From sequence record OQ708376.1: DNA of 64,000 nucleotides. One strand, 5' to 3'. Source of the DNA: Escherichia phage vB_EcoM_CRJP21. Both the position numbers and the translations under genes were made by a program. Below the pieces are notes generated by a model, which was given only the letters and a program-made list of their open reading frames with translations, made no database searches and was not told the DNA's origin. This document shows positions 3,061 to 39,452 of the stretch, piece after piece (within the stretch, counting starts at the first letter, position 1; the number at the start of each line of letters is the position of its first letter).

Positions 3061-3324
3061 ATGAATATTAAAGATAGATTACAATTACTGTACACACTTG
3101 AACAGGCTGCTTATGATCTTGTTCGAAAAATCTCAGATGAACTACCTAAAGGAACTAAAGTTCGTGTACGTGAGATGAATTATTTTTCTGGAGTAATTGA
3201 AGAACAAGTACTAACAGTGAATAAAGTAACATACTATGAATCTGAGTTGTCTATTCAGTGTGAATCTGATGATGGATTAATATCATATTATGGAACTGAT
3301 GTAGATATAGAGGTAATAAAATGA
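3061..3324 (+). CDS. hypothetical small protein
   Basis: ATG at 3061 after GGTGGA; track ORF 3016-3324. Confidence 0.45.
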   Translation: MNIKDRLQLLYTLEQAAYDLVRKISDELPKGTKVRVREMNYFSGVIEEQVLTVNKVTYYESELSIQCESDDGLISYYGTDVDIEVIK

Positions 3325-4463
3325 CCCTTTTGCAAATATATGAAGATTTAATGCACTTATGTAATACAAACGATGCATTCTTTTATGTGGATCATAAAAG
3401 TCCTGCTGGTGGCACGTATCGTGTATTCAGTTATCGTCTAGCATCATACACTGATTTCATGCAACCAAATGCGTTGGAAACCCGTGGCTCTATGTGGGAA
3501 ATTGATGAAGAAGGTGACATGATACGTTGTGCAGCACGTACAATGAAAAAGTTCTTCAATGCTTACGAGAATCCTGCTACAATGTTCCCTGCTAACACCA
3601 CATGCGATGACATTGCGGTAGTGATGCCTAAGTTGGATGGCTCGATCATCAGTACTTATCGTGATAATGATGGTGAGATTCGTTGTAAATCACATACTGC
3701 ATTGTATTCTGACCATGCGATTAACAGTACTCGACTTATTAACGAGAACCAGAATTTGTATCAGTACATCGACGAAGCGGAACGTTTAGGTTACACAGTT
3801 AATATGGAGTATACAAGCCCAGAGTACCGAATTGTATTACCATATCAGGTAGAACAACTGTTTGTACTGAACGTTCGTCATCGTGTGAGTGGTGAGTTGC
3901 TATGTGGTAAAGCACTACGTGATAAGTTTCCATGTCTTGCACAGTACAGTACTAATATGACTGGAAAAGATATTCATCACACTTTTCCGGTACGAAATAC
4001 CTTCCGTGAAAGCGTGGAGGAAGTTCATAAAATGCTTGATATTGAGGGTTTTGTGTGCATCCTAAATAATGGGACAATGTGTAAAATAAAGACTGACTGG
4101 TACAGTTCATTACATCTTACAAAAGATAGTATTATTATTGATTCTCATTTATATGAAGCAGTATTAAATGGTTCAAGTGATGATTTAAAACAATTGTTCA
4201 GTACTGATGAATATGCTATGCAAAAGATATTAAGAATGGAACAATTGGTATTTTCGTGCTATAATGCATTACAAGATGAAGTAGAAAGCTTCGTCAAGGA
4301 ACACAAGCACTTGGAGCGAAAGGAATTCGCAATGAAGGTTCAGGAGTGTTTAACTAATGAACTGAATCGTCAGGGCTTGGCCTTTGCAATGTATAACAAT
4401 AAGAAAGTTGATTACAAAGAGACTCTTATAAAATACATGAAAATTGTACTAAAGGATTTTTAG
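3321..4463 (+). CDS. rnlA: RNA ligase 1 (T4 Rnl1-like)
   Basis: 380 aa; N-terminal region (FYVDHKSPAGGTYRVFSYRLASYTDF) matches T4 Rnl1 pattern; ligase motif I lysine in MPKLDGS. Confidence 0.85.
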   Translation: MTLLQIYEDLMHLCNTNDAFFYVDHKSPAGGTYRVFSYRLASYTDFMQPNALETRGSMWEIDEEGDMIRCAARTMKKFFNAYENPATMFPANTTCDDIAVVMPKLDGSIISTYRDNDGEIRCKSHTALYSDHAINSTRLINENQNLYQYIDEAERLGYTVNMEYTSPEYRIVLPYQVEQLFVLNVRHRVSGELLCGKALRDKFPCLAQYSTNMTGKDIHHTFPVRNTFRESVEEVHKMLDIEGFVCILNNGTMCKIKTDWYSSLHLTKDSIIIDSHLYEAVLNGSSDDLKQLFSTDEYAMQKILRMEQLVFSCYNALQDEVESFVKEHKHLERKEFAMKVQECLTNELNRQGLAFAMYNNKKVDYKETLIKYMKIVLKDF

Positions 4464-5559: not shown

Positions 5560-6492
5560 ATGCCAACTATTACACTAACAGTTGGATTACCTGGGTGTGG
5601 TAAAACCACATGGGCAGTTCAAGAAATTAAAAATGCCAAATCCAAGACTATCAACATCAACCGTGATGATATTCGTGAATCTATGGCTGGGTCACATGAT
5701 GCTTACAAATTCAACGATGCTAATGAGCAGTACGTAACTAATTTACAGTTCAGTGCAGCAAATTCAGCAGCAGAGAATGGTTGGAACATCATCATATCCG
5801 ATACAAACCTTAAACAACATTTCCGTAATCTCTGGAAAGTATGGGCTAAAGATAATGGTTATGATTACAAAGAAAAGAACTTCTATGATGATTTTGTACC
5901 TAATGAAGACCGTGGTGCAGATGTTCATGAATTCTTTAAGATTAAAGAGTTCGTAAAACTTTGTAAGAAATATAACCTCCAGCGTGAGCGTTCAGTACAA
6001 GATGATATCATTGACACAATGGCAGATACGTACTATTATAGTAAGGCATTGCACATTGGTTACTATGGTAATTCACGAGAAGCTGCTGTTATCGTTGATA
6101 TTGACGGTACTCTTGCTCATAAATGGGGTCGTAATCCTTACGATGAAAGTACTGTTCTTCAGGATACACCTGATGAAGAAGTTATTTTGTCTATTATCGC
6201 TGAAGCAGTTTTTCATAAACGCAAGATTATCGTCATGAGTGGGCGTACTGAAGGGTGTCGTGCTGATACCGAACAGTGGCTTAAGAATTGGGGTGTTCCT
6301 TACGATGCATTGTTTATGCGAGATATCGATGATAAACGTCCTGATGATGTTGTAAAATTCGACCTGTACATGAAAAATGTGGTTGATCATTACGATGTTA
6401 AAAAGGTATATGATGACCGAGCACAAGTCGTATTCATGTGGCGTAAGCTACTTGGTTTGAAAGTTTTTCAAGTTGCAGAAGGAAATTTCTAA
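5560..6492 (+). CDS. pseT: polynucleotide 5'-kinase / 3'-phosphatase (T4 Pnk-like)
   Basis: P-loop GLPGCGKTT, NINRDDIR, and HAD-type phosphatase motif VDIDGTL; colinear with T4 Pnk over full length. Confidence 0.85.
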   Translation: MPTITLTVGLPGCGKTTWAVQEIKNAKSKTININRDDIRESMAGSHDAYKFNDANEQYVTNLQFSAANSAAENGWNIIISDTNLKQHFRNLWKVWAKDNGYDYKEKNFYDDFVPNEDRGADVHEFFKIKEFVKLCKKYNLQRERSVQDDIIDTMADTYYYSKALHIGYYGNSREAAVIVDIDGTLAHKWGRNPYDESTVLQDTPDEEVILSIIAEAVFHKRKIIVMSGRTEGCRADTEQWLKNWGVPYDALFMRDIDDKRPDDVVKFDLYMKNVVDHYDVKKVYDDRAQVVFMWRKLLGLKVFQVAEGNF

Positions 6493-11590: not shown

Positions 11591-12789
11591 TGGATTTTCC
11601 AGAGAAGTTATTTGTTGCACGTTCCTATGTAAACCACAACCAAGTTGATGGTTTTATTATCGATGCAACAAAATCACATACAAAAGCGTTTGAAACAAAG
11701 AAAGAGAGAGCAGAGTACTGGGCAAAGAAGAACAATCTTCCATCGTTATATATTGACAACGTTCCAACTACGGGATTTTGTGTAGTTGATAAATTAACAA
11801 CTCATGCACGAGAAACATATTTCACGATCCGTCACCCAGAAGGATTTGAATTTATGATTAGTGCCAAAAACATGAATGATTTAATTATCAATAACGATAT
11901 AATCAAAGGTGTTTTTGTAGACCCAATGTTTTTCAACAATAACTTAGAATTAATTAATGGTAAAACAAAAACGTTTGCTAAGTTAGTTGAAAAAGAAAAT
12001 AAAAAAGAACAACAAAAAGAAACTGTAGCAGGTCTTAAAGTTGGTGATGGTTTCACTTATCTCAAAGAAGATTACTATTACTGCGGTAAAGTTCATGCAA
12101 TTTGTATAAAGAAAACTAAAGAATTTGCATACCCCGACAAAAGTTCTGTTTATCATTTACTTTTCAACAGTACTCGTGGAACTTATGCATTGAATCAACG
12201 TTTGGATAATTACAATCTGGAACCTCGTGCACTCTTGAATAAGAAGACTACGGCAGATGAAGAAATTAAACTTGCTAATGATTTTTGGCAAAGCTATAGA
12301 ACAAACAGACATAACCCATTAGGTGAATCTAACATTCCAGTACTGGTACACAATAAATCATTTAAAGCAAAAGACCTAAAAATTAAATATGAAGAAATAA
12401 ATGTTGATGATCTTATGAATAATGGACGTTTCAACGAGAACGTACCATTTATGACTAAAGATAATGAACAAACATATCGCGTATTTTTTGGTGTAAGTAA
12501 TAATACAACGCGTAGTTATTATGGGCGTAGTGGAGATTATAATATCCATTATAATGATAAATTTGAACGCTTTAGTGCATATCCAGTTCAAATTGATGAT
12601 AATGGGATTATGGTAATGGATGTTGATATTAATGAACACTCATCATTTAGTACATGGAATGGCTATCGTTCCCCATTCTTCCCACCAAATGAACGCAAAA
12701 CATCAAGTTCTCGTTACTACCAAGATAAGCCGTGTCACGTTCAACTATCAATTAGTAATCCACTTTATATTGGAAAGTATTATCTATAA
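11587..12789 (+). CDS. hypothetical protein
   Basis: 400-aa ORF, no recognised motif. Confidence 0.5.
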   Translation: MMDFPEKLFVARSYVNHNQVDGFIIDATKSHTKAFETKKERAEYWAKKNNLPSLYIDNVPTTGFCVVDKLTTHARETYFTIRHPEGFEFMISAKNMNDLIINNDIIKGVFVDPMFFNNNLELINGKTKTFAKLVEKENKKEQQKETVAGLKVGDGFTYLKEDYYYCGKVHAICIKKTKEFAYPDKSSVYHLLFNSTRGTYALNQRLDNYNLEPRALLNKKTTADEEIKLANDFWQSYRTNRHNPLGESNIPVLVHNKSFKAKDLKIKYEEINVDDLMNNGRFNENVPFMTKDNEQTYRVFFGVSNNTTRSYYGRSGDYNIHYNDKFERFSAYPVQIDDNGIMVMDVDINEHSSFSTWNGYRSPFFPPNERKTSSSRYYQDKPCHVQLSISNPLYIGKYYL

Positions 12790-12800
12790 AGGAATATACA

Positions 12801-14219
12801 ATGAGCATTTTAGCAATTCTTGAAAGCATTAAAAATACTAGCAGTACACTAGGCAAAAAAGCTATTCTTGAACAAAATAAAGATAATGTAACTTTACAAA
12901 AAGTACTGAAATATACTCTAGACCCTTCTATCGTTAGTGGCTATAAGAAGCTCCCTGCCGCTGATGACGTATATCAACATATGACGTTAGATGAAGCAAT
13001 TGATAAGCTAGAATGCATTTACAAGCGTGATGTGACAGGAAATGCGGGGCGTGATTTCATTGCTTCAGTACTGGGTTCTGTATCTGAAGATGATCAGGAA
13101 GTTCTCCGTAAAATGCTTACTAAAAACCTTGATTGTGGTATTCAAGAAAAGAACTGCAATGATGTATTTGGTAAAGGCTTTATTAAAGACGAACCATATA
13201 TGCGTTGTTCTTTGATTGACAAAAAGACTGCAAAGAACATCAACTTCAAAGATTATGGTTACGCTATATCAGAAGTGAAAATGGATGGTCAGTACTTGAA
13301 CCACGTTGTTATTAATGGTTCATTAACTTCTACATCCCGTAATGGTAAACTATACGACTTCCTGGGTTGTCGTGATGGTGAGATGGCAGGTCTTGCTCAC
13401 ATCATCCAAAGTAAAGATGAACGTTTTAGTAGTGGTGTGGTCTTTATGGGGGAAGGTGTAGTACTGGACAATGATGGGGAAACCATTCTCCCACGCACTA
13501 CTGGCAACGGTATAATTCAGAAAGCTGGTAAAGATAGCATCAGTCAGAATGAAGCAATGCGTACTGTATTCGTTCTATGGGATGTTGTTCCATATGATGC
13601 ATTTTGTGAAGGTGTATGGGATGTAAAACGTAAAGAACGTCGCGAGATCTTAGTAGATGCAATTAACGAACTCAATAGTGATTTTGTTCGTATGGTTGGA
13701 TTCCGTAAAGTTCTAAACATCAAAGAAGCATTTGAGTACAATAGTGAACTAATGAACGAAGGTGAAGAGGGTTCAGTACTGAAATGTGAAGATGGTATCT
13801 GGAAATCTCACACTTCTCCGAAGCAGTTGAAAATGAAATTGAAAATGCAACTAGACTTGCGTATTGTTGGTTTCAATGAAGGTGAAGGTAAACGTAAAGG
13901 AAGCCTAGGTTCTTTACAACTGGAAAGTGCTTGTGGTTCATTGAAAGTTAATGTGGGTACTGGTATCAAAGAGAAAGATGCTGAATGGACATTTAAAACC
14001 ATTTGGGAAAGAATGCAAGAACTTATTGGTAAAGTGGTTACAGTTGAGTGTAATGACATTGTATTCGAGAAGCGTACTGGTGAGCCATCACTGTTCTTAC
14101 CAGTGTTTATTGAATTTAGATTTGACAAAAACACTTGTGACGACTATACTCGTATTTTAGAAATTCGTGATAGTGCTGTTGAGGTGTTCTCAAACAGTAT
14201 CATTGAATCACTTGGCTAA
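12801..14219 (+). CDS. 30: ATP-dependent DNA ligase (T4 gp30-like)
   Basis: N-terminus ILAILESIKNTSSTLGKKAILEQNKDN parallels T4 ligase; adenylation motif KMDGQ. Confidence 0.85.
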   Translation: MSILAILESIKNTSSTLGKKAILEQNKDNVTLQKVLKYTLDPSIVSGYKKLPAADDVYQHMTLDEAIDKLECIYKRDVTGNAGRDFIASVLGSVSEDDQEVLRKMLTKNLDCGIQEKNCNDVFGKGFIKDEPYMRCSLIDKKTAKNINFKDYGYAISEVKMDGQYLNHVVINGSLTSTSRNGKLYDFLGCRDGEMAGLAHIIQSKDERFSSGVVFMGEGVVLDNDGETILPRTTGNGIIQKAGKDSISQNEAMRTVFVLWDVVPYDAFCEGVWDVKRKERREILVDAINELNSDFVRMVGFRKVLNIKEAFEYNSELMNEGEEGSVLKCEDGIWKSHTSPKQLKMKLKMQLDLRIVGFNEGEGKRKGSLGSLQLESACGSLKVNVGTGIKEKDAEWTFKTIWERMQELIGKVVTVECNDIVFEKRTGEPSLFLPVFIEFRFDKNTCDDYTRILEIRDSAVEVFSNSIIESLG

Positions 14220-18054: not shown

Positions 18055-18550
18055 TACTAATATCTGGTTAGATAACATAATCAAGACATTAGAATTAATT
18101 AAACTTACATTACAAAAAACTACTGATATTGAAATTAATATTAAACAAGAAATATTAAACTATTATCATAGAAACAAATATAGCACGTTTATCTCTAAAT
18201 TAATTTATGGATTATATGATATTGAAGATATTTGCATCGGTTACAGTACTGGTATTTGCTTCACAGTTAATGGTTTAAAAAATGATTTAAATTTCAGACT
18301 TTCCGATGAAGAGCAAGATTTTCGTAGATTTTGTGATAATATTATGGATACAGATAAAATTACATTTGTTATTGAATTAAATCAAACGTGGTCCACATAT
18401 GCAGATAAACCATTTGAAATTAATGAAACAGATGTGTTAAACTATATTCGAGTTATGAAAATTCATGATTTGTGTAAAAACGCATTGTTAAGTATTGGAG
18501 CTTATAATGAAACATACGACTTGGTTGAAGATAGCAGAAGTAGTTGCTGA
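18026..18550 (+). CDS. hypothetical protein (very AT-rich)
   Basis: ATG 18026 after GAGGG. Confidence 0.45.
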   Translation: MKYTHLSIDDTNIWLDNIIKTLELIKLTLQKTTDIEINIKQEILNYYHRNKYSTFISKLIYGLYDIEDICIGYSTGICFTVNGLKNDLNFRLSDEEQDFRRFCDNIMDTDKITFVIELNQTWSTYADKPFEINETDVLNYIRVMKIHDLCKNALLSIGAYNETYDLVEDSRSSC

Positions 18551-18986
18551 GGAAAGTAAATGTATTTCACAAAAAGTTGGTTGTGTTATTGTTAAAAATA
18601 ACCGAGTATTGAGTACTGGTTACAATGGTACTCCATCAAAACAACCAAATTGTTGTGACGTGAATCAACACTTAGTCAATGATGGGTGTTTTCAAGACTG
18701 GGTTAGTGATGAAGCAAAGCATGAACATCATGAGTGGAGTAATATTCATGAAATCCATGCTGAAATGAACGCTTTACTCTATAGTTCTCCTACTGAACGT
18801 CAAGGTGCAACTCTTTACACAACACTACAACCATGTTATACTTGTTCTAAGTTGATCGCAGGTAGTGGGATTTCACGTGTAATTTATCTCAAAAATTATC
18901 CTCGTACACCACCAGAAGCTATTAAAGTACTGGAAGATGCTGGAATTATTGTTAATTGCATTTATGATAAGGGTCTTGATAAATGA
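18507..18986 (+). CDS. cd: dCMP deaminase
   Basis: zinc-binding HAEMNA ... PCYTC, N-terminal GCVIVKNNRVLSTGYNGTPS. Confidence 0.8.
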   Translation: MKHTTWLKIAEVVAEESKCISQKVGCVIVKNNRVLSTGYNGTPSKQPNCCDVNQHLVNDGCFQDWVSDEAKHEHHEWSNIHEIHAEMNALLYSSPTERQGATLYTTLQPCYTCSKLIAGSGISRVIYLKNYPRTPPEAIKVLEDAGIIVNCIYDKGLDK

Positions 18987-19871: not shown

Positions 19872-20480
19872 ATGAAAAGACTATGGCTTGAAGTGATACA
19901 AGCAGCGATGTTTCTATTGTTAATAAATTTTCCAGCCAGTGCTGGTATTGAAAGTAAAAATGTGATAAAGTATAATCCTGAAACCCGAAATGTATATTTC
20001 ATATCAGATATTACAGATGGGTCACTCAAGAGAATGATAGAGTTGTATGATAAAGAACACTATGATACCATCACAATTACATCTCCTGGTGGTGATTTTG
20101 ATGCAGGTATTCGAATGGCAAACTTTGTTAGAGACAATGGGATAAATTTAATTGTTTCTAGGTATTGCAATTCAGCATGTACTGTGGTATTCTTTAGTGT
20201 ATCTCCCGAAAAGCGATATATGACAAATCGCTCAGTACTGGGTCTTCATAACATTTCGATTAAAAGTAATGTTACTGATGGTGATAATTCATTTGTGTCT
20301 GTAAGACAGCTATCAACTTTTACCGAAGAAATGGCAACAAAGGTAGGTTTCCTTTTTTCACTATATGCAGCAAATGGAATCCCACCAGAAGTTCTATTTA
20401 GAGTTAGTCGTTCTCGTGGTGAAGATGTTGTAATATTAACAAAACCAGAACTGGTTTTTTACGGTTCAGTCAAACAATAA
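19872..20480 (+). CDS. secreted ClpP-fold serine peptidase-like protein
   Basis: signal peptide MKRLWLEVIQAAMFLLLINFPASA; ITSPGGDFDAG aligned to ClpP SPGG region. Confidence 0.5.
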   Translation: MKRLWLEVIQAAMFLLLINFPASAGIESKNVIKYNPETRNVYFISDITDGSLKRMIELYDKEHYDTITITSPGGDFDAGIRMANFVRDNGINLIVSRYCNSACTVVFFSVSPEKRYMTNRSVLGLHNISIKSNVTDGDNSFVSVRQLSTFTEEMATKVGFLFSLYAANGIPPEVLFRVSRSRGEDVVILTKPELVFYGSVKQ

Positions 20481-20550: not shown

Positions 20551-20811
20551 ATGACAAACATCCAAAACTTGACATCTATTATTTTTTATGCTACTGTAGT
20601 AATGTATGCTACAGTTATTTTTCTAACAGTTTTCATTTACAAAGATTATCGTAATGGCTTTATTGATCCAACTACAATGAAGTTCAATTCAAAATTCGAA
20701 GCAATAATTTATTATGTACTATCAACTTCATACTTGGTGTGCCTAATGTTGTTAGGAGCACTAATTTATATCTTATACACAACATTATTTGCAATTGGAG
20801 CTATTTTATGA
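20551..20811 (+). CDS. small membrane protein
   Basis: two long hydrophobic segments. Confidence 0.45.
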   Translation: MTNIQNLTSIIFYATVVMYATVIFLTVFIYKDYRNGFIDPTTMKFNSKFEAIIYYVLSTSYLVCLMLLGALIYILYTTLFAIGAIL

Positions 20812-21401
20812 CCTGTATTATTGCACACACTGACGGAGTAAGTTCTTTTATTGCTGGGGATAAGTTAGGAAGCAATGGATTTACAAAAACTGTTCAAACT
20901 GAGCCAAAGGTATTCGAGAAAGAATTTATCAAGTTACATGATGATGGACTAACTAGAACTAAAGAAGTAATGGCATTGGGTTATACTACATCATTTCGTA
21001 TGGGTCAGTTGTTAAATTATAACCTTAATTTACCTGAACAAGATGCTAGTCAAACATTTTCACAATATTTGGTTCTTAAAGTTATTCCAATCATTCGTCA
21101 AATGTTTAAAGAAGAATGGGGTGCACGAGATGCATCACAAGATGTAGGTGGTGGACAATTTATCATTCTCCACAATCATACAATCTATGAAGTTCAAGAA
21201 GACTTTTCAGTACTACAACCTAAAACAAGAATTACCGCAGTAGGTAGTGGGACATATCATGCAATTGCAGCAATGCAAGCATATATTGAAGTTGAGAACG
21301 AATCTAAAAAACCACTACACGAACGTATCAAATCAATTTTTAAAATTGTTAGTGATAATGTAACAAGCGTAAGCGAAGAGTTTGATGTTTTAAAATATTA
21401 A
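20808..21401 (+). CDS. HslV / proteasome beta-like Ntn peptidase
   Basis: ATG 20808 gives MTCIIAHTDG (Thr at position 2 as in HslV); FIAGDKLGSNG and TAVGSGTYHAIAAMQA parallel HslV. Confidence 0.55.
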   Translation: MTCIIAHTDGVSSFIAGDKLGSNGFTKTVQTEPKVFEKEFIKLHDDGLTRTKEVMALGYTTSFRMGQLLNYNLNLPEQDASQTFSQYLVLKVIPIIRQMFKEEWGARDASQDVGGGQFIILHNHTIYEVQEDFSVLQPKTRITAVGSGTYHAIAAMQAYIEVENESKKPLHERIKSIFKIVSDNVTSVSEEFDVLKY

Positions 21402-21632: not shown

Positions 21633-22385
21633 ATGATATCAGAAAAATTTATAAGCAATGAAGGTAAAAAGCGATTACTGATTATATCAGGTGCAGGACT
21701 TTCTGTTGAAAGTGGTATGGAACCTTTTCGATTTGATGATGGTTTGTGGGATACATTTAAAATTAATGATGTATGTAACATTGCTAGTTTAACTACGAAA
21801 TATCACGTTGTTCATTCCTTCTATAATACATTACGTGTAAAATTGGGTCAATGCAAACCCAATGCAATGCATTATTTTATAAAATCGTTAGAAGATCAAT
21901 ATGGTGATTGCTTCCTTCATATGACTTCTAACATGGACGATCTTTATACTCGTATTGGTGGTCATGAGCTTAAACTTCATGGAAACTTGTGCGAAGTTAT
22001 TGAAAATTATAGTATCAATTCCGATGATTATAATGTTATTAACTGCGGATACGAACCATACATACCAAAACATGATGTTTTTGCCAAACCAAATGTAGTA
22101 ATGATTGGAGAATATCATCGTTATGTTGATGGTATTCGCTTACCAATTTACGAAGAACGAAATAATGTGTTGAAATCTCTTAATGAAAATGATACAGTTA
22201 TTGTAATTGGTAGTAGCGATACAGTACTGGTATGGTCGAGATTAGCAGCAGCATTACCATGTTATAGTGTTAATGTTAACATTCGTAAAAATGATAATGA
22301 TTTTTTGTTTAATGAAAAAGTTATCAAGCCAGCAACCAAAGCAATACCGCATCTAGAGACTATAATTAAGGAACGTATGAAATGA
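21633..22385 (+). CDS. Sir2-family (sirtuin/CobB-like) NAD-dependent enzyme
   Basis: GAGLSVESGMEPFR, HMTSNMDDL, catalytic LHGNL, VVMIGE, VIGSSDTV; lacks canonical CxxC zinc tetrad. Confidence 0.75.
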   Translation: MISEKFISNEGKKRLLIISGAGLSVESGMEPFRFDDGLWDTFKINDVCNIASLTTKYHVVHSFYNTLRVKLGQCKPNAMHYFIKSLEDQYGDCFLHMTSNMDDLYTRIGGHELKLHGNLCEVIENYSINSDDYNVINCGYEPYIPKHDVFAKPNVVMIGEYHRYVDGIRLPIYEERNNVLKSLNENDTVIVIGSSDTVLVWSRLAAALPCYSVNVNIRKNDNDFLFNEKVIKPATKAIPHLETIIKERMK

Positions 22386-22933
22386 GTGTTAAAGAAGTTC
22401 CCTTTGGTGAATATGGCACACGTGCAAATTTTGTATTTTGTTATTTCTTTGCAAGAAAATGCAACCCTTACAAAAACTATGAGTTGAATGATATACCAGA
22501 AGTAAATTTAGTATTACTGCAATTACGATGGGATGGTCTTCTTGGTGGATGTGGTGGAACCGTAGAAAGTACTGATATCTCACTAGAAGATGCGTTGCGT
22601 CGTGAAGTTCAAGAAGAAATGGATTACAATATTTTTGTTTCCCATCTTCGACCACTCAAAACTTTTGAAATTTACCCAGGTGCAAACAGTCACAGTTTTA
22701 GCTATGAAGTAACCTATGACGAGTTGAAACACATTAGAGATGGATACACTAATGCTAAACATGCAAGTGCAGAAGTTGCTGGTGTAAATTTATGTCATAT
22801 TTCGCGTTATTCTAAGGGACAAAATCGAGAAGCGGGATATAATAATCTTATGACACAGAACTTCATCGGTACAGCAAAACAAGAATTGGAGTATCTGGTT
22901 CAAAAAGAAAACTTACTAATTAGTTATCTATAG
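22382..22933 (+). CDS. Nudix-like hydrolase (divergent Nudix box)
   Basis: GGTVESTDISLEDALRREVQEEMDY approximates GX5EX7REUXEEXGU with a 3-residue insertion. Confidence 0.4.
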   Translation: MSVKEVPFGEYGTRANFVFCYFFARKCNPYKNYELNDIPEVNLVLLQLRWDGLLGGCGGTVESTDISLEDALRREVQEEMDYNIFVSHLRPLKTFEIYPGANSHSFSYEVTYDELKHIRDGYTNAKHASAEVAGVNLCHISRYSKGQNREAGYNNLMTQNFIGTAKQELEYLVQKENLLISYL

Positions 22934-23622: not shown

Positions 23623-25062
23623 ATGAAAAAATATACAATTGACACAAACGTACTACTATCTGACCCTAATGCATCTATTGCTTTTGATGGTGCTGCAATC
23701 ATTCTACCATTTACAGTACTGGAAGAATTGGATTCAATTAAGAGTCGTAATGTAGATGTTTCACGCGATGCTCGTGTTGCTATTCGTAACATTGAAGCAA
23801 TTATTGCAGATGCATCACATGATGAGATTAGTAGTACTGGTGTTAATATTGCTGATGTTCATACCAATATGAATCCTGATAGCAAATTGTTTGTTATTAC
23901 AAACGAAGAAGCTGAAGCACTAATTCGTACTAAAGGTTCAGAAGAGAAAGTTCAAACCCTTCTCAAAAGCACAGTACCTGATGATAAAATCATTCTGGTA
24001 GCTTTAGCAACAGAATCAGTACTGGTAACTCGTGATATCAACATGCGTATCAAAGCACTAAGTTATGGTGTCGAGGTACAAGATTATCGCCATGATATTG
24101 TTATTGGTGATAGTGATTTGATTCACATTGGTCAACACCATTTGGAAATTAATTTTTGGGAAGTATATAGCAACTTATCCAATACTAATATTCAATCCGA
24201 ACAAGTTGGTCGTCGTTTGTATCATTACATTTCTAAAAGCTTGATTGAACATTTGCTTCCACAAAATCTATGCATCGGTGATTATCTATATGATGATGCA
24301 GACGTATTATTTGTGTACGAAGGTCAATCAGCAATTGAGGAAGATGATGGAACACTAACACCAGAAGATATTTTGGTATTCCAAGATATTGGACAATCAG
24401 TAGCTTTACGTGCTAAAGTATGGGATATTAAAGCAAAGAATATCCAACAAGCACTCGCCATCAACAGTATTCTCGATCCTGATGTACATCTAACAGTACT
24501 GCTAGGTTCTGCTGGTACTGGTAAAACACTAATTACGATTGCTACTGCATTAGAATTAGTACTGGAAAAACGTAAATACGACCGAATCATCTTCTCTAAA
24601 ACTCAAGACTCACAGTTTGAAGATATTGGTTTCTTGCCAGGTTCAGAAGCAGAAAAAGTGATTCCATTCTGTGGAGCCGCAATTGACGCGTTAGAGTTTC
24701 TTCATAAAGATGATGCTAACCCTCAAGGTAGTATTGAAGAGATTATGAAACGTAATGTTATTCAATTTAAAGCACTAAACTTTGTACGTGGACGTTCATT
24801 CACCAACACTATTCTAGTAGTTGATGAATTCCAAAACATTACACCTGCACAAGCTAAAACAATCTTGACACGAGCAGGATTAAACTGTAAAGTAGTAATT
24901 ATGGGTAACTTGAGTCAGATTGACAGTAAGTTTATTAGTCCTGTTAACAGTGGTTTGACATATGTAACTGAGAAGTTTAAAGATTGGGCAGGTTGTCGTG
25001 TCATCGAACTAGAAGGTGTTGTTCGTTCACCACTTGCAGAATTTGCTGAAGAAAATATGTAA
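23623..25062 (+). CDS. phoH: PIN-domain + PhoH-like ATPase
   Basis: N-terminal PIN (IDTNVLL), Walker A GSAGTGKTL, Walker B VVDEFQN. Confidence 0.8.
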   Translation: MKKYTIDTNVLLSDPNASIAFDGAAIILPFTVLEELDSIKSRNVDVSRDARVAIRNIEAIIADASHDEISSTGVNIADVHTNMNPDSKLFVITNEEAEALIRTKGSEEKVQTLLKSTVPDDKIILVALATESVLVTRDINMRIKALSYGVEVQDYRHDIVIGDSDLIHIGQHHLEINFWEVYSNLSNTNIQSEQVGRRLYHYISKSLIEHLLPQNLCIGDYLYDDADVLFVYEGQSAIEEDDGTLTPEDILVFQDIGQSVALRAKVWDIKAKNIQQALAINSILDPDVHLTVLLGSAGTGKTLITIATALELVLEKRKYDRIIFSKTQDSQFEDIGFLPGSEAEKVIPFCGAAIDALEFLHKDDANPQGSIEEIMKRNVIQFKALNFVRGRSFTNTILVVDEFQNITPAQAKTILTRAGLNCKVVIMGNLSQIDSKFISPVNSGLTYVTEKFKDWAGCRVIELEGVVRSPLAEFAEENM

Positions 25063-28053: not shown

Positions 28054-28098
28054 TATCAGTACTGTCATAATGGCAGTACTTTTTAATTGGAGATTACT

Positions 28099-28713
28099 AT
28101 GACTACATCGGAAAAGTACTGGTGGATTTTGGCTCATCCTAAATTCATAAACAAAGATATGGTTCCAGCTAGGATTGATATAGAACCTCATGATGTGTGT
28201 CCAATGACAAATCGAATTGAAGATTTCAAAGCATTGAATACAAAGACTCAATTTTGGGTAGAATTTCTTTCACCAATGTATATTGAGCAAGACGACGAAT
28301 GGGTACAAGCACATGATTATCAATTGGATTGTGGTGGTGATACGTATGAAGAGGCGATTGATAAATTATACAAAAATGTGCTAAACACATATGGTGATTA
28401 CACCCAACAAGAAGCAGATAACACATTTAATAAGATCCATGCATTCAAATCTACTCCATCAATTTTTAATCCTACTAAAACTGTTTGGGAGGAACGACAC
28501 AGTTGGAGTTCATGTGTAATCGATGAAGAAACCAAAGAAAAAATCATCGATGATATAAAAAATTTAAAAAATACGATAGAAGCCTTGCGTGAATTCATAA
28601 TGTCTTGTACAATAGAACAACAGAAAGAGGCAAAGATACATTTGGAGAGTGAAGAATGTAAACTTTGGGTTCTAGAGAAATCTATTGAAAAGGGTATAGA
28701 CTTAGACTTATGA
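28099..28713 (+). CDS. hypothetical protein
   Basis: ATG 28099 after GGAG. Confidence 0.5.
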   Translation: MTTSEKYWWILAHPKFINKDMVPARIDIEPHDVCPMTNRIEDFKALNTKTQFWVEFLSPMYIEQDDEWVQAHDYQLDCGGDTYEEAIDKLYKNVLNTYGDYTQQEADNTFNKIHAFKSTPSIFNPTKTVWEERHSWSSCVIDEETKEKIIDDIKNLKNTIEALREFIMSCTIEQQKEAKIHLESEECKLWVLEKSIEKGIDLDL

Positions 28714-29078
28714 ATAGTAAATTGAAGAAACTAATCGAAGAATTACGCCAGATGCCACCTATTGAACAAGTAGGAAATTACAAACGGTATCGTGTTATTG
28801 CTCGTGCACTTGATAAAAAAGGTAGAGTACTGGCAACTCGCACAAATTCTTATACACAGACTCACCCAGTACAGAAGGGTTTCGCCATTCGTGCTGGGCG
28901 ACCGCAAGGTGAGTTTCTTCATGCTGAAATTTCATGTTTACTGGCTGCTCGTACTGATGTTCATACTTTACTGATTGCACGGATAAGTAAAGATGGAATT
29001 CCTGTTCCGGCTAAACCATGTGAAATTTGCTCATTAGCAATAAAAGAATATGGGGTGAAAGAGATTATCCACACATGA
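28710..29078 (+). CDS. CDA-fold zinc deaminase-like protein
   Basis: HAE ... PCEIC zinc-binding signature in a 122-aa protein. Confidence 0.55.
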   Translation: MNSKLKKLIEELRQMPPIEQVGNYKRYRVIARALDKKGRVLATRTNSYTQTHPVQKGFAIRAGRPQGEFLHAEISCLLAARTDVHTLLIARISKDGIPVPAKPCEICSLAIKEYGVKEIIHT

Positions 29079-29296
29079 AAATTGAAAGATATGCTAAGCA
29101 TACTGTTGGGTGTGTAAATGATATATTCTATTATTATATTTTTGCACCTGAACTACGTTTTCAAATCACAACATACAATGATGGCAGATTTAAAGATACA
29201 AACTTCCTCATAACCGACTTAGCAAAGTATGCGAATACAGAACATTTTAATCATTTAGTATTTGTGTACTGTATACCAAACCCAAATAAAAAGTAG
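29075..29296 (+). CDS. hypothetical protein
   Basis: ATGA overlap with previous stop. Confidence 0.4.
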   Translation: MKIERYAKHTVGCVNDIFYYYIFAPELRFQITTYNDGRFKDTNFLITDLAKYANTEHFNHLVFVYCIPNPNKK

Positions 29297-30483: not shown

Positions 30484-30586
30484 ACTTGTCATAGGTTGTA
30501 GTGCACTTGCTGCATATATGCTTTTTTCCGCACCAACCAATGTATTACTGTTAATTTGGGCAGTTGTTATATTAGCAGTACTTTAA
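30470..30586 (+). CDS. possible small hydrophobic peptide
   Basis: 38 codons ending immediately before terminator. Confidence 0.25.
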   Translation: MRLAKLVIGCSALAAYMLFSAPTNVLLLIWAVVILAVL

Positions 30587-30608
30587 AGCACCCTAGTGGT
30601 GCTTTTTC
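30586..30608 (+). terminator. intrinsic terminator
   Basis: AGCACCC / GTGGTGCT stem then TTTTT. Confidence 0.55.
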
Positions 30609-33410: not shown

Positions 33411-36107
33411 ATGTCAAAGAAAATATATGGTGGCTTAGATGTCACACATAATGTGACAGTTAATGGTAAAAGAACAATTCAAGGAATAAATGAACAAGTT
33501 TTTGATTCCAACGGTAACTTGGAATTAGATACTTATTCCAGAGATGAAGTACTAGATATAGTAAGTATGATGCCAATCTCCCATTATGGTTCACAAAACT
33601 ATCTACCTGCGGGTGTATCTGGGGATTTCAATGGTGCATCAGAAAACCAGTCACAACGTAGAAATAAAATTTTATTAGAAAACGATGGTACACTAGTACT
33701 TTTACGTAGTGGGACAAACGGTAGTGTTGAGGGATTATTTTATTCATATTTGGCTAACGCATTATCAGTTGATGACATGAGCCGTACAATTAACACTAGT
33801 CGTCAATACAAGCCTGGGTTTTTTGGTTCAAATAGAGTTGCGATTGGTTTATACAATACTGATCCAAATATTTTACTCGGTAGATATATTGATACTTCTA
33901 ACAGTACTAATGGTTTGTTCATATCAATTACCAATGGTACATTAGATGATAAATTGCATACTGGTTTTTTCGTTAACCAAGCAGATATATCACCTGAAGG
34001 TGGTATTGAATATGCTATGATGGCAGAAGATGGTTCTATATATGTTTTTAACGTACTTAATGAAAATAACCAACTACAATTAGTTGTTGTTAAAGTTGTT
34101 TATAATATAAGCAATGGTACTTATACTGCAACTCGAATTACTGGATGGACTACAAAAACATTCTATAATACAACTTATTCTGCACAGAATAACATGGTTA
34201 TTACTAATCAAGTAACTTCAACTAATATAGCAGATAAGCCTTATGTGTATGTACCACAAAACCTACGTGGTATTGGGATTTATATGACATCCATTGATTT
34301 GTATGTTGCACAGCAACCAGGAACACAGAACTTTCGTTTTAGAATGAATGGTGATGCATGGTTTACAATGGCGACATATAATGTCCGACCACAACATAGC
34401 TACAGCTTTGCATTTAATATGAGTACTAAACAATGCACCCTAGACGCTGGGAATGACATAGGTTCATATCAAGCACCATTGGTTATAACCAATACTGGCT
34501 CTGCATTAGTGCCTACAGGTAACGTTTTAAATAATGATCCATTATATAATCATGCTGGTGCAAGAAACATTTATAGTTCATATTTTTATTTGAATTCTGG
34601 TGAAGCTTTTTGTACTGCATGTCCAAACTTAGCAGAACCATTACTTATGCAAAAAGCTAAGTTTCCTATTCAAATAGTTTATAGTATGCTGAATGTCCGT
34701 GCTGTACTTTCTACTGACTTCAAAGGTGGTATAGTTCGCCCGTCTTTTGGTTCAGCGGTTGGTTCATTTATTAATGGTGTAGAATTACTACCAGATAACA
34801 GTACTAAACAATATTCACGTGCATCAGGTAGTGGTGGATTTAGACCATCATATGCAGTTCATAAAAGTACTCCTAATTTTACATTTAAATCATTATCTTT
34901 AGGAACAATACAAGGTTATGAACCTACAGTTGAACGTGCTAATGTTGATGATAATGCAAATAATAGAATTTTTATTAGTAGTATTTCTGGGTCAACTGTC
35001 ACAACCAATGGTGGTATTTTTATGGTTGGGCAACGTTATTCACAATCATTATCCTATGATAAAAACTTAAATGGCACAGGAATTATAAGCGTTACACAAT
35101 CAGTACTGGACAATTTTAGAAATACTGAATATGCCAAAGTTCTAAGTGATTGGAATTTATCAGCACAAGCATACCGTGATATGACACTATTTGTTCCACA
35201 ACAAACAGACATTCCAGCTTTTGTTATGTTGAGTACAATTACTAATGATTATAGAAACTATATTAGAATTGCTGAAGTTAATGTCAATACTAGAGTTGGT
35301 AATATTACATCTATTACATTTAAGCGTTTAGTACTTGAGAATACGTATGGTGATAACTTTACACCAACTGGGAATGGTTCGATTGCATCTTCTTCTGTTG
35401 GTTTGACAATATATGATGGTGGTTCATTCTACTTCATTGGTGGTTCTGACCCATTATCACATCCAACAATAGGTAATACTGCAACTCATCAATTTAGAGC
35501 ATATGTAACTAAATCAACTGCACAATTTACAAGTTTTATAATTACTGGTTCTCATGCCAGTTATGAACAAGGAAGTCAACCAGCAGCGTTACCTGGTATT
35601 GGTTTTGGAATTTTTGAACCAATGGATTACTCAAATAAAATGACATTCAAAAAATATGGAACAACGATTGCAGACTATAATAACTGGACTGCACAAGGTA
35701 GCCCAATTAACGTAGTATCCCAGGACGTTGCTCAAGGGTTTATTGTATATTTTACAGAGGAAACACCAGTTATTCTTTCAGGTAAGTCATTTTCACTACC
35801 AGTTTCAAATATTGATTTGAGAACTATTAAGTCTAATCCAGCAAATACAACATTTTATGTATATGTTAAATTGGAACAAGGATTGGCAAACTATTACATA
35901 ACTACTGATGTTATTTCTGAAACAGGAACAACTGCATATAATATTTTTTGGATAGGTACAATTCAAACTAATGCAATTCAAATCGAAACAATTAATATAC
36001 AAAAACGTTCCCGTTTAGATATATTTGGTGCTTCACTTGAATCAGCAGGTTCATCGTTCCCAGTTAGCTACGGTCTACCATCACAAACAGGAACCATAAA
36101 CTGGTAA
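33411..36107 (+). CDS. large structural-like protein (putative fibre/adhesin), paralog A
   Basis: 898 aa, S/T/N/G/Y-rich; N- and C-terminal modules shared with 36119 and 36723 proteins. Confidence 0.5.
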   Translation: MSKKIYGGLDVTHNVTVNGKRTIQGINEQVFDSNGNLELDTYSRDEVLDIVSMMPISHYGSQNYLPAGVSGDFNGASENQSQRRNKILLENDGTLVLLRSGTNGSVEGLFYSYLANALSVDDMSRTINTSRQYKPGFFGSNRVAIGLYNTDPNILLGRYIDTSNSTNGLFISITNGTLDDKLHTGFFVNQADISPEGGIEYAMMAEDGSIYVFNVLNENNQLQLVVVKVVYNISNGTYTATRITGWTTKTFYNTTYSAQNNMVITNQVTSTNIADKPYVYVPQNLRGIGIYMTSIDLYVAQQPGTQNFRFRMNGDAWFTMATYNVRPQHSYSFAFNMSTKQCTLDAGNDIGSYQAPLVITNTGSALVPTGNVLNNDPLYNHAGARNIYSSYFYLNSGEAFCTACPNLAEPLLMQKAKFPIQIVYSMLNVRAVLSTDFKGGIVRPSFGSAVGSFINGVELLPDNSTKQYSRASGSGGFRPSYAVHKSTPNFTFKSLSLGTIQGYEPTVERANVDDNANNRIFISSISGSTVTTNGGIFMVGQRYSQSLSYDKNLNGTGIISVTQSVLDNFRNTEYAKVLSDWNLSAQAYRDMTLFVPQQTDIPAFVMLSTITNDYRNYIRIAEVNVNTRVGNITSITFKRLVLENTYGDNFTPTGNGSIASSSVGLTIYDGGSFYFIGGSDPLSHPTIGNTATHQFRAYVTKSTAQFTSFIITGSHASYEQGSQPAALPGIGFGIFEPMDYSNKMTFKKYGTTIADYNNWTAQGSPINVVSQDVAQGFIVYFTEETPVILSGKSFSLPVSNIDLRTIKSNPANTTFYVYVKLEQGLANYYITTDVISETGTTAYNIFWIGTIQTNAIQIETINIQKRSRLDIFGASLESAGSSFPVSYGLPSQTGTINW

Positions 36108-36722: not shown

Positions 36723-39452
36723 ATGTCATCAAAACGAATTATAGGAAGTGCCGAGATCCTTGGGAACTTGGCAATTGGACAAAGGTACGCTATGCGTACT
36801 TTTAATGGAACCTCACCGAATGCCAATACTGGAATTGTTCAATATCCAATATATAAGCGTTCAGAAGTTCAAAGTATTTTAGATATGTTGCCTATATCAC
36901 GTGTAGGAGAAATGGATTACTTGCCATTAAACGTAAGTGGGTCGTATGAAGGTGCTACACCTATGTCAAGTGACCAAGTAGTTCAGCCAACAATTATTGA
37001 AGATGATGGAACCGCCGTTGTTCTGCGTAGCGGAACCAATGGTAGTACTAAAGGTTTTTATTATTCATTTATACGAGAACTCCGAAATATAACTATGATT
37101 TCACAAGAAAGTGTTATTTCCACCAATTCAATGTATAAACCTTCAATTATGAGTAGTACTGAAAATATTAAGTATTTTATTGGCTCTAATGGTTATGAGA
37201 TGCTTGGATGTTTAAGTACAGAAGATAATTATATTTTCACTTTAACAAATGGTACATTCAACGAAATTTCACATATTCACGCTAAAGTTCCAAGTACATC
37301 ATTTGGAAATGATATGCCATTATACGTTCATATTGTAGGTTCTAAAGTATATATTTGGTGTAAAGATAAAAGTGTTTCTAATTTAGGATTAGCACTTTCA
37401 ATTTATACAGTAGAGCTAAGTGATGTGAAAGCAAGCTCAATGGCATCATTAACAAAAGTTACTGGATTATCAGGGCAAACTGTTCGAAATACAAGTTATT
37501 CTGCATCTAATAACATAAGAGTGTTTGATAGATTATATAGTGTTGGTACTAGCTCGGATTCATTATTCGAAGTTACATCACCAGTCTCACGTGTAGAATT
37601 TTCGGATTATACAGACTTTAATATACAAGCAAACGTTAGTACTGATTTATCCAAAATACGTGTAACTTTATACCCAACACATAGAATGGTTACACCTTTA
37701 TATATTTCAACAGTGTATGGTACTGGTATCAGTTTTGTTTATAATATAAACTCAAAATCTATGTCACTAGATGGTTCTGCTCGTGCTCCTGCGACAGTTT
37801 CATATAATAATGGCTTCCAAGTTACAAACCCATTTGAAATAGATATGGTAAACTTTACTGGAACAACAGCTACCGGAGTTTTAGGTAATGCTGGTGGGTT
37901 ATGTCAAACAAAAGATGGTCTTGTATTTGCATCTAAATTCAGATGGAGTTCTACTGAATTTTATGGTTTACAAAGATATAAAGTTAATGGTACACCATTT
38001 GATTCATGGGTAGCCAGTACTAGATCCGCAAGTAACGTTATAAATACAAACGTTTTACCAGTTTTTGGTAGTGCTGTTGGTGCAAACCTATTAGGTGTAC
38101 GTTTCATCGATAATAGAAAAATATTATTAGCATGTTCTGGTACGTATGATGATGTAACATATAATTATAATAATACTGTTTTTTCTGAAATAGGCCCACA
38201 ACCAACATATCAATATAACTCAGTTCAACATAATACTACATTAAATGGTTTTGCACCACAATCTAATCGTAAACAAATAGGTGATGATTTTACATACACT
38301 GCTATGATTTCTCTTGTTGATACCGATGGTAGTGTTAGATGTTATGGAACATCATTCATTGAAGGTGTATATAAAACAAGTGGTGGATTATTAAACCCAG
38401 ATACTTTAGAATTTGATGAAACATATACAATAGAACCAACGGTATTAGAATCATTAAAACAAGATATTTTTGCTAATCTAGGAAACTCTGGCATTGTTGG
38501 TACACTATCTGGACAAATTGTATTATATTATGTACCTGATAATACTTTTTCTAAATCCATTGCAGTAGTTTCAGCATATAATCTTAACAATAACCAAGGT
38601 TATGCAATTTATGCCGAAGTTGATGTTGTATTATCTGGATCTAACATAACTTCAGCTACATTGGTAAGTACTAGATATGAGACACTTAGTTCTGTTACAG
38701 GAATTATTACTGAAGCATATATGAAACGTTGTACTGGTCTAACAGTTGCTAAATATTCAGGATTTGGTTATATTGGTGTTGATGCAGTTCATCAATTTTC
38801 ACAACCAGGTAATGCACAATTTAAGATGATGATAGCTAAAACAGTAAATGGTGTCATAACATCAAATCGTTTTTTATCATCTAGTTACATCCAACTCGGT
38901 GCAGCATATCAACATGGTGTTATTCCTGGTGTTGGTTTTGGATATTACAATTTTCAAGATTCTGACTATCAAACCAAATCTGTATTCAGCGTTTTTGGTA
39001 CAACATCTGCTGAAATGGATGGTTTAATTAGCGGAAATGGTAGCGTTAAAGAAAAGATTGTGGTAGTATCACAAGACGTTGCACAAGGATTCTCAGTGTA
39101 CTTTACACGTGAAGTTCCGGTATTTTTAGGTGGAATTTTCGACAGACTACCTATACAAAGTGTAGATTTAAGTACTGTAAAAAATAATCCAGCTAATACT
39201 ACGTTCTATTTGTATATACAAATGAACAGGAATACTAAGAAAGCTTCATATGTTATTAGTACTGAAACTATTGATGAATCTTTAACTAGCACTTACATTG
39301 GTAAGATAGTTACTGGAACTTCAGGAATTACTTCGATTGATACTGAAAAAGTGACTCGTTTTTTGACATATCGCCCAAGTACAACGAAACGTGGTTCAGC
39401 GATACCTGCCAGTACTGGTGTACCGTCTGGGTCAGGCACACGTTGGAAATAA
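36723..39452 (+). CDS. large structural-like protein, paralog B
   Basis: ATG 36723 after AAGGAAAAG; ~909 aa. Confidence 0.5.
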   Translation: MSSKRIIGSAEILGNLAIGQRYAMRTFNGTSPNANTGIVQYPIYKRSEVQSILDMLPISRVGEMDYLPLNVSGSYEGATPMSSDQVVQPTIIEDDGTAVVLRSGTNGSTKGFYYSFIRELRNITMISQESVISTNSMYKPSIMSSTENIKYFIGSNGYEMLGCLSTEDNYIFTLTNGTFNEISHIHAKVPSTSFGNDMPLYVHIVGSKVYIWCKDKSVSNLGLALSIYTVELSDVKASSMASLTKVTGLSGQTVRNTSYSASNNIRVFDRLYSVGTSSDSLFEVTSPVSRVEFSDYTDFNIQANVSTDLSKIRVTLYPTHRMVTPLYISTVYGTGISFVYNINSKSMSLDGSARAPATVSYNNGFQVTNPFEIDMVNFTGTTATGVLGNAGGLCQTKDGLVFASKFRWSSTEFYGLQRYKVNGTPFDSWVASTRSASNVINTNVLPVFGSAVGANLLGVRFIDNRKILLACSGTYDDVTYNYNNTVFSEIGPQPTYQYNSVQHNTTLNGFAPQSNRKQIGDDFTYTAMISLVDTDGSVRCYGTSFIEGVYKTSGGLLNPDTLEFDETYTIEPTVLESLKQDIFANLGNSGIVGTLSGQIVLYYVPDNTFSKSIAVVSAYNLNNNQGYAIYAEVDVVLSGSNITSATLVSTRYETLSSVTGIITEAYMKRCTGLTVAKYSGFGYIGVDAVHQFSQPGNAQFKMMIAKTVNGVITSNRFLSSSYIQLGAAYQHGVIPGVGFGYYNFQDSDYQTKSVFSVFGTTSAEMDGLISGNGSVKEKIVVVSQDVAQGFSVYFTREVPVFLGGIFDRLPIQSVDLSTVKNNPANTTFYLYIQMNRNTKKASYVISTETIDESLTSTYIGKIVTGTSGITSIDTEKVTRFLTYRPSTTKRGSAIPASTGVPSGSGTRWK

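Follow-up and report, generated by a model that had tools for sequence, protein, structure and literature searches.

A second, minimal deaminase of an Asteriusvirus jumbo phage and its apparent origin among phage dCMP deaminases

Why should a large phage that already encodes a deoxycytidylate (dCMP) deaminase carry a second, much smaller protein of the same fold? The question is raised by a 64,000-nucleotide stretch of Escherichia phage vB_EcoM_CRJP21 (sequence record OQ708376.1), referred to here as the window, which is 99.9% identical to Escherichia phage vB_EcoM_E9.1. The source phage is an Asteriusvirus, from the PBECO4/121Q group of 350-kb jumbo phages. The original prediction, made from the sequence alone, had pointed to an open reading frame (ORF) of 122 amino acids (aa) at positions 28710-29078 of the plus strand, with the motifs HAE (residues 71-73) and PCEIC (103-107) of a cytidine deaminase (CDA) fold, and both motifs are read directly in the DNA. 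GenBank records label this small gene 'dCMP deaminase', 'CMP/dCMP-type deaminase domain-containing protein' or 'hypothetical protein'. To judge from profile comparisons, the protein is a stripped-down descendant of the phage dCMP deaminases, in which the catalytic core and the cap over the active site have been kept. Its substrate is tentatively proposed to be a free cytosine nucleotide.

The window protein belongs to the CDA superfamily, as it scores 29.1 bits against Pfam PF00383 (gathering threshold 25, E 9e-7) and contains both the H/C-x-E and the P-C-x-x-C zinc motifs. It also matches PHROG 174, 'dCMP deaminase' (2.4e-13). None of the NCBIfam models was matched by it above noise, and a search of the Protein Data Bank with the window sequence alone gave no meaningful match, a family profile being required. 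The AlphaFold2 model (mean predicted local distance difference score, pLDDT, 91.4; predicted template modelling score, pTM, 0.84) starts with helix 1 (residues 3-14) and strands 1 and 2 (28-34 and 40-45), followed by a capping insert (46-70) that includes a helix at 53-61. The second half consists of the HAE helix (72-80), strand 3 (86-92, with the sequence HTLLIAR), a 10-residue loop, the PCxxC helix (105-114) and strand 4 (118-121). The chain stops two residues past strand 4, with neither helix 4 nor strand 5, and contains only three cysteines (C76, C104 and C107). In a fold search of BFVD with the small deaminase, all matches were either unnamed viral proteins or generic dCMP deaminases.

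The original prediction had made its case depend on the conservation of the zinc ligands in orthologues. These ligands and the catalytic Glu are invariant in 19 close relatives and conserved at 99-100% in an alignment of 161 family sequences, from which all the conservation percentages given here are taken. At the zinc site, H71 is conserved at 99%, A72 at 96%, E73 at 100%, and P103, C104 and C107 at 99% each. Beyond it, the family has a signature of its own, formed by N46 (99%), the H52-P-x-Q55 motif (H52 95%, P53 93%, Q55 89%), R91 (98%) and G96 (86%), and a Lys is found at position 50 in most relatives. The pairwise ratio of nonsynonymous to synonymous substitutions (dN/dS) between orthologues lies at 0.04-0.16 wherever dS is unsaturated. 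The gene is evidently real and under purifying selection, and it apparently encodes an active zinc-dependent hydrolytic deaminase.

With regard to ancestry, the profile search proposed in the original prediction upheld the CDA-fold assignment, whereas the nearest kin turned out to be the dCMP deaminases, with which the protein had been contrasted. When the family was compared by hhalign with an alignment of 29 canonical dCMP deaminases (Cd), the two were colinear from helix 1 to strand 4, with a probability of 98.6% and an E of 9e-16 over 114 aligned columns. The best sequence match among solved structures is the dCMP deaminase of cyanophage S-TIM5 (4P9C), with an alignment over the full length (E 1e-9). 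All 52 sampled members match PHROG 174. Among the NCBIfam models, the same 52 proteins match a dCTP-deaminase domain (31 members), two cytidine deaminase models (19 and 12), ComEB (14) and TadA (2). Homology to the dCMP deaminase/ComE clade thus extends over the whole catalytic domain. The small family shares with T4 Cd (1VQ2), S-TIM5 dCD (4P9C), Streptococcus mutans dCD (2HVV) and the Cd of the window the same fold with an HAE/PCxxC zinc site, an Asn at the end of strand 2 and an inserted segment that separates strand 2 from the HAE helix. Like these enzymes, it is found in large AT-rich phages that encode thymidylate synthase. N46 is the counterpart of the sugar-binding Asn of dCMP deaminases and TadA, and the cap is the element that in dCMP deaminases restricts access to a soluble base (Iyer et al. 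2011, PMC3239186).

The canonical enzyme of the same phage, predicted at 18507-18986, was recognised without difficulty (PF00383 77.8 bits; PHROG 174 1.5e-61). It contains the second-zinc Cys residues, GYNG, HAEMNA and the Tyr after strand 4, and it is acidic. As originally noted, the small protein has no such N-terminal features, since the second-zinc Cys ligands, GYNG and NxxP are all missing from it. The clades were told apart by the synapomorphies of Iyer et al. 2011 (PMC3239186, Table 1). No Cys stands in the place of the canonical invariants C19 and C49, which belong to the second zinc site. Of that site H52 alone is retained: the residue aligned with it in the S-TIM5 enzyme is the second-zinc His ligand, whose Cys partners are gone from the small family. 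In place of NxxP (GYNGxP), the family has the motif N-S-Y-x-K-T-H-P, with the Pro seven residues on from N46. The NA motif is also absent, the window protein reading HAEISC and the family consensus HAEIxAL, so that the canonical invariant N88 is missing. Neither TxxxT nor a counterpart of the canonical invariant Y131, the Tyr after strand 4, is found. Conversely, the small family differs from the dCMP deaminases in its 10-residue loop between strand 3 and PCxxC, in the invariant R91 and the H52-P-x-Q55 motif, in size (100-135 aa against 140-190 aa) and in isoelectric point (pI; about 9.7 against 4.9-6.4 for the canonical enzymes considered here). The bifunctional dCMP/dCTP deaminase of PBCV-1 (7FH4) has a sequence identity of just 16-19% and a helix 4 that the small family lacks. 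The alignment shows that descent from a phage dCMP deaminase was accompanied by the loss of the second zinc site, helix 4 and strand 5, together with the residues that form the dCTP/dTTP regulatory site, and regulation by dCTP and dTTP has presumably been lost with the family's divergence. The protein is better regarded as a truncated side branch of the dCMP deaminase lineage than as a member of that clade as currently defined. It stands as a second, stand-alone and, from its sequence, apparently active CDA-fold deaminase distinct from the canonical Cd, as the original prediction held.

The UniRef name of the canonical Cd of Asteriusvirus (protein cluster P0270) is 'tRNA-specific adenosine deaminase'. 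Since the window protein scores as a dCMP deaminase, this label looks like an annotation error. A paper on the Asteriusvirus Sharanji lists a 'tRNA-specific adenosine deaminase' among translation factors.

The family is large and almost wholly confined to phage contigs. An exhaustive HMMER search gave at least 645 clusters at 50% identity with E < 1e-3, 245 of them with E < 1e-10, and a profile search found 811 proteins in a collection at 90% identity. All 150 cluster representatives listed are 83-166 aa long. Homologues occur in 196 phage records, in which RaK2-like orthologues and distant relatives are both counted. Orthologues are found throughout the RaK2-like jumbo phages (RaK2 75% identity, Munch 63%, GAP32 and BF about 55%), and more distant homologues in phiKZ-like phages, T4-like cyanophages, Aeromonas phages and others; the annotation of GAP32 equates its homologue with ORF260 (gp260) of phiKZ. 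The named members are phage proteins. The near-absence from cellular genomes rests on a single narrow peptide pattern, with which 185,579 bacterial and archaeal genomes of GTDB, each representing a species, were scanned; only two relatives came up, both on short contigs of metagenome-assembled genomes. The Aeromonas phage 4L372D member (locus L103, 31060-31431) shows a rare variant, HSE replacing HAE.

Many relatives are shorter still than the window protein. In 8 of 17 viral lineages the protein is 101-108 aa long even when the longest possible ORF is taken. In these proteins HAE is preceded by about 49 residues and PCxxC followed by about 15, and both helix 1 and strand 5 are absent; examples are P0210, P0241, P0256 and P0267 in the IMG/VR loci L026-L094. 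The conserved core of the family comes to about 97 residues, and members of about this size are possibly the smallest proteins of the deaminase fold in which the zinc site is intact. So small a core suggests that the function of the family depends on oligomerisation, and the active site is probably completed in this way, by analogy with the tetrameric cytidine deaminases. The tetrameric cytidine and blasticidin-S deaminases (3DMO, 3OJ6, 3B8F) are of a comparable size (about 130 aa) and also have a loop between strand 3 and PCxxC; additionally, longer members of the small family go on with beta strands after strand 4, as these enzymes do. In the longer relative P0200, strands rather than a helix are predicted after strand 4. 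This secondary structure tentatively suggests the C-terminal-hairpin rather than the helix-4 division of the superfamily, a hairpin-like C-terminus being present in longer relatives only.

Membership of the other deaminase clades was considered and rejected. The tetrameric enzymes usually read CAE, of which the HAE of the small family is an allowed minority form. In the window protein the second motif is PCEICS, without Arg, and there is neither strand 5 nor a Glu after it; the score against the cytidine deaminase model TIGR01354 is 13.8 bits, against a cutoff of 113.65. The analogy with tRNA adenosine deaminases drawn in the original prediction has become less likely. TadA and ADAT2 (2B3J, 6VPC, 6L2L) have an EPC(l)MC motif, helix 4, strand 5 and C-terminal tRNA-binding helices, all of which are missing from the small family. 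The corresponding motif of the window protein is AKPCEIC, nothing follows strand 4, where TadA has a basic residue and two further helices with a conserved E and F, and the NCBIfam TadA model, unmatched by the window protein, reaches its two matches among the 52 members with a best E of 0.0027. The truncated clades of Iyer et al. 2011 (Bd3614, YwqJ and XOO_2897) resemble the family in having domains that stop after strand 4 or after helix 4. A basic residue ahead of strand 1 is shared with Bd3614, and a conserved His in the insert that joins strand 2 to helix 2, as well as an insert before CxxC, with YwqJ. However, the family lacks their HAExN, CxMxC and Gx[CH]xE motifs and the N-terminal globular domain, and it is found in phages rather than in bacterial toxin loci, with no delivery or immunity context. 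The polymorphic-toxin deaminases (MafB19, YwqJ, SCP1.201/DddA, SsdA) were likewise rejected, the Pfam Bd3614 and MafB19 scores being below cutoffs. The suggested analogy with editing toxins has thus also lost ground, given that there is no delivery domain and no conserved immunity-like neighbour and that toxin Pfam models score below their cutoffs. The anti-phage dCTP deaminase model NF041025 (cutoff 400 bits), which describes a protein with an N-terminal kinase-like domain, is not matched by the window protein; 31 of the 52 relatives match its deaminase domain only (best E 1.8e-7), and the gene is phage-encoded. In a search of PADLOC-DB no model was matched by the deaminase, which argues against a known defence or anti-defence protein, and the ORF upstream of it gave marginal matches only.

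The genomic context was surveyed in 80 viral loci with 10-kb flanks, assigned to 17 lineages by deaminase identity. When all ORFs within 10 kb were clustered, no neighbour family occurred in more than 3 of the 17 lineages. Genes of nucleotide metabolism (NrdA/B/D/G, Cd, ThyX, Tmk-like) lie within 10 kb in 6 of the 17, and an RNA ligase in 3. A CCA-adding enzyme adjoins the deaminase in one locus (L008), and in three metagenomic contexts the gene lies in a typical run of small phage ORFs of the early type.

Four carrier lineages were inspected more closely, and thymidylate synthase is encoded in all of them. In the window phage, nrdD and nrdG are present, and the canonical Cd lies 10 kb upstream of the small deaminase. 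Limnohabitans phage DC31 (76 kb, PQ492658.1; locus L013), from a lineage unrelated to the window phage, repeats this pairing, with the small deaminase at 34385-34729, Cd at 33684-34139, one 88-aa ORF between them and ThyX 4.5 kb further on. The whole genome of the phiKZ-like phage 9Ps-7B has the small gene as its sole CDA-fold ORF, accompanied by a Dcd-type dCTP deaminase, ThyA, DHFR, Tmk and ribonucleotide reductase. In the whole genome of Aeromonas phage 4L372D it is again the sole CDA-fold ORF, no other pyrimidine deaminase was found, and thymidylate synthase, dUTPase, NrdB and NrdD are encoded. The small deaminase is thus the only CDA-fold enzyme in two of the four genomes and stands beside a canonical Cd in the other two. 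Cd as a constant companion was accordingly rejected, since neither 9Ps-7B nor 4L372D has one. In the papers on RaK2 and phAPEC6, one dCMP deaminase is listed besides a thymidylate synthase, and the small gene goes unmentioned. The base composition of the carriers is low in G+C, at 33.5% for the window against 51% for the host, about 37% for DC31 and the phiKZ-like phage and 35% for 4L372D. The lineage means range from 31 to 46% over the 17 lineages (median 37.5%), and a few metagenomic loci reach 48-52%.

The reading preferred here, with reservations that leave it a little short of being expected to hold, is that the family consists of unregulated mini-deaminases of a free cytosine (deoxy)nucleotide, which would provide, or add to, the dUMP available for making thymidylate in AT-rich phages. 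In such an enzyme, H71, C104 and C107 would hold the zinc-bound water and E73 would shuttle the proton. N46 would hold the sugar, and the 25-residue insert that separates strand 2 from the HAE helix, with its H52-P-x-Q55 motif, would cap the pocket. R91, a putative phosphate or backbone contact, would bind the phosphate together with K102 and with the Lys found at position 50 in most relatives. The protein would work as a homo-oligomer, with dCMP as the first candidate substrate and dCTP or a nucleoside as possible ones. Without feedback control, the pool would be pushed towards dUMP and dTTP, as needed for a genome of 33.5% G+C in a host of 51%. Preference is given to this reading because of the descent from dCMP deaminases, the retention of the capping insert and the profile matches, which favour cytosine enzymes, and furthermore because thymidylate synthase is present in every carrier checked and two genomes have no other CDA-fold enzyme.

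Several observations weigh against it. The second-zinc Cys residues, NxxP, the NA motif, TxxxT and the Tyr after strand 4 are all missing, and the literature that could be searched yielded no functional study of a family member. A canonical Cd is already present in the window phage and in DC31, where it is only 246 bp away, and the phiKZ-like phage has a dCTP deaminase of the Dcd type; a plain duplicate function is therefore not obviously needed. The charge of the protein is a further difficulty. The window protein has a pI of 9.86 and a net charge of +10, the median pI of 267 members is 9.68, with 97% of them above 8.5, and the canonical enzymes are acidic (pI 6.4 in the window, 4.9 in DC31). 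Fifteen alignment positions are at least 50% Lys or Arg, against three acidic ones, and they concentrate in the hairpin of strands 1 and 2, the insert, R91 and the loop before PCxxC. Such uniform basicity is, at the sequence level, more typical of nucleic-acid binders. It would fit the binding of a phosphate or of a backbone, and it provides the main argument for a polynucleotide substrate.

The small protein might accordingly deaminate bases within a polynucleotide (host or phage tRNA, mRNA or single-stranded DNA), as an early factor in host takeover, translation tuning or counter-defence; its positive surface would bind the backbone, and the pocket loops (46-70 and 93-102) would select the target base. 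The coexistence with Cd or Dcd, the loss of substrate and regulatory residues and the positive charge keep this explanation in contention, although it is considered unlikely. The strong charge is kept family-wide, the residues specific to dCMP deaminases are absent, and in three of the four genomes checked the gene coexists with another pyrimidine-nucleotide deaminase, which argues for a non-redundant role. RNA and tRNA repair genes also lie near, namely an RNA ligase (Rnl), a polynucleotide kinase (Pnk) and a CCA-adding enzyme in the window, besides the locus adjoining a CCA-adding enzyme and the three lineages with an RNA ligase. Conversely, the two C-terminal helices with which TadA holds tRNA are absent, as is the loop linking strand 4 to helix 4 that is used by the APOBEC and TadA families; the pocket is capped by an insert where dCMP deaminases exclude polymers, and the TadA profile matches very few members. 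The more specific proposal that the basic, phage-restricted mini-deaminases of 100-135 aa are natural polynucleotide editors, made early and acting on cytosine (or adenine), is more doubtful still. As for phage tRNA substrates, no tRNA genes were found in the window, and no tRNA with A34 was found in the phiKZ-like and DC31 carriers. Asteriusvirus Sharanji, whose small deaminase is 95% identical to that of the window, does encode a tRNA-Ser(ACU) with A34. This 92-nt gene is 100% identical in 18 Asteriusvirus records, among which the closest relative of the window, E9.1, is not included, and the presence of so well conserved a tRNA is counted in favour of a polynucleotide substrate. Its anticodon loop, CUACUAA, differs from that of the TadA substrate E. 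coli tRNA-Arg(ACG) only at position 36. In bacteria A34 is rare outside tRNA-Arg(ACG), a tRNA that the host always offers. If A34 of tRNA-Ser(ACU) were converted to inosine, the resulting ICU anticodon, in the split AGN box, would decode AGA (Arg) as Ser; for this reason tRNA-Ser(ACU) is a poor candidate substrate and gives no simple support to a TadA-like role. A role of this kind through phage A34 tRNAs finds no support across the family as a whole, although one lineage does have such a tRNA. The suggestion in the original prediction that a phage copy could modify nucleotides, tRNA or DNA remains a fair summary, in that the strong basicity keeps a polymer substrate under consideration; what has weakened is the likeness to tRNA deaminases and toxins.

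A different small molecule is an improbable substrate, be it 5-methyl-dCMP from host DNA, a cyclic CMP immune signal or a purine (GuaD-like). The lack of redundancy with Cd or Dcd in three genomes would be accounted for, and the insert lining the pocket is family-specific, so specificity could have shifted. The phiKZ homologue, PHIKZ260, is expressed early, having its own primary transcription start site in differential RNA-seq of early infection (PMC8244752); its counterpart in 9Ps-7B lies at 12246-12605 of locus L096. However, there is no PADLOC match and no defence-related neighbour, the profile matches favour cytosine over purine enzymes, and the strand-5 swap and large helical insert after strand 4 of GuaD are impossible in a protein that ends at strand 4. 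It is very improbable that the protein is a catalytically dead remnant serving as a binding or regulatory subunit of Cd or another enzyme, as ADAT3 does for ADAT2. The very small truncated fold, without strand 5 and in many relatives also without helix 1, and the short distance to Cd in DC31 would suit a subunit, but all four catalytic residues are 99-100% conserved, including the Glu that is lost in ADAT3, two carriers have no canonical Cd to pair with, and no neighbour family is common to more than three of the 17 lineages.

Model phages such as phiKZ (gp260), the RaK2/121Q/GAP32 jumbo phages and the T4-like cyanophages are among the carriers of the family, and databases file it without comment as 'dCMP deaminase' or 'hypothetical protein' although it lacks most of the features by which dCMP deaminases are defined. 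If these proteins are unregulated dCMP/dCTP deaminases, they would explain how thymidylate synthase is fed in AT-rich phages without Cd, and the question would become why some phages keep a regulated and an unregulated deaminase together. If they edit polynucleotides, they would be the smallest known nucleic-acid deaminases, with about 100 residues and no helix 1 or strand 5, would represent a new class of phage host-takeover or counter-defence factor and would offer base editing a very compact scaffold. In either case, the family shows how small the CDA fold can become while remaining under strong selection.

Table. Positions of the small deaminase gene, its coding motifs, its neighbours and the features compared with it (window coordinates unless another record is named)
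Feature	Position	Strand	Remarks
Minimal CDA-fold deaminase gene	28710..29078	+	ATG-started ORF, 122 aa, stop codon included
H71-A72-E73	28920..28928	+	Codons CAT GCT GAA; first zinc ligand and catalytic proton-shuttle Glu (role predicted)
P103-C104-E105-I106-C107	29016..29030	+	Codons CCA TGT GAA ATT TGC; second and third zinc ligands
Family signature N46-S-Y-T-Q-T-H52-P53-V-Q55	28845..28874	+	End of strand 2 and start of capping insert
R91, end of strand 3	28980..28982	+	Family-specific, 98-99%; loop S93-K102 then PCxxC
Upstream 204-aa gene, function not assigned	28099..28713	+	Stop overlaps deaminase start (ATGA)
Downstream 73-aa gene, function not assigned	29075..29296	+	Start overlaps deaminase stop (ATGA)
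Terminator-like hairpin with T run	28058..28080	+	Just 5' of the 204-aa gene; consensus match only
Terminator-like hairpin	30585..30605	+	Before nrdD; consensus match only
Canonical 159-aa dCMP deaminase (Cd) of the same phage	18507..18986	+	Comparator; pI 6.4
tRNA-Ser(ACU)	Sharanji OR545507.1 95470-95561 (= L107 11471-11562)	- on L107	Outside the window

The small deaminase gene is located in a run of small genes on the same strand, forming a compact block bracketed by the two hairpins in the table, of which the one at 30585-30605 is the probable downstream end. The nrdD and nrdG genes follow 1.6 kb downstream of the deaminase. The upstream 204-aa ORF is 36% identical to GAP32_133 of Cronobacter phage GAP32, which is equally adjacent to the deaminase there. 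It was rejected as a partner gene, being conserved and adjacent only within the RaK2-like phages and not beside distant family members.

Elsewhere in the window, a tRNA-repair set is formed by a T4 Rnl-like RNA ligase (3321-4463), a polynucleotide kinase (5560-6492) and a CCA-adding tRNA nucleotidyltransferase (58537-59649), whose names are taken from the annotation of E9.1 and whose coordinates come from an ORF scan of the window. An ATP-dependent DNA ligase is found at 12801-14219. Just downstream of Cd lie a protease and an HslV-family peptidase (19872-20480 and 20808-21401), and further on a 479-aa PhoH-like protein (23623-25062). Two hypothetical proteins of about 900 aa (33411-36107 and 36723-39452), directly downstream of nrdG, are unannotated in the related records seen. 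Finally, two overlapping genes are annotated as a Sir2-family NAD-dependent deacetylase (21633-22385) and a Nudix hydrolase (22382-22933), and they could form a pair for NAD and ADP-ribose handling that is relevant to NAD-depleting host defences.

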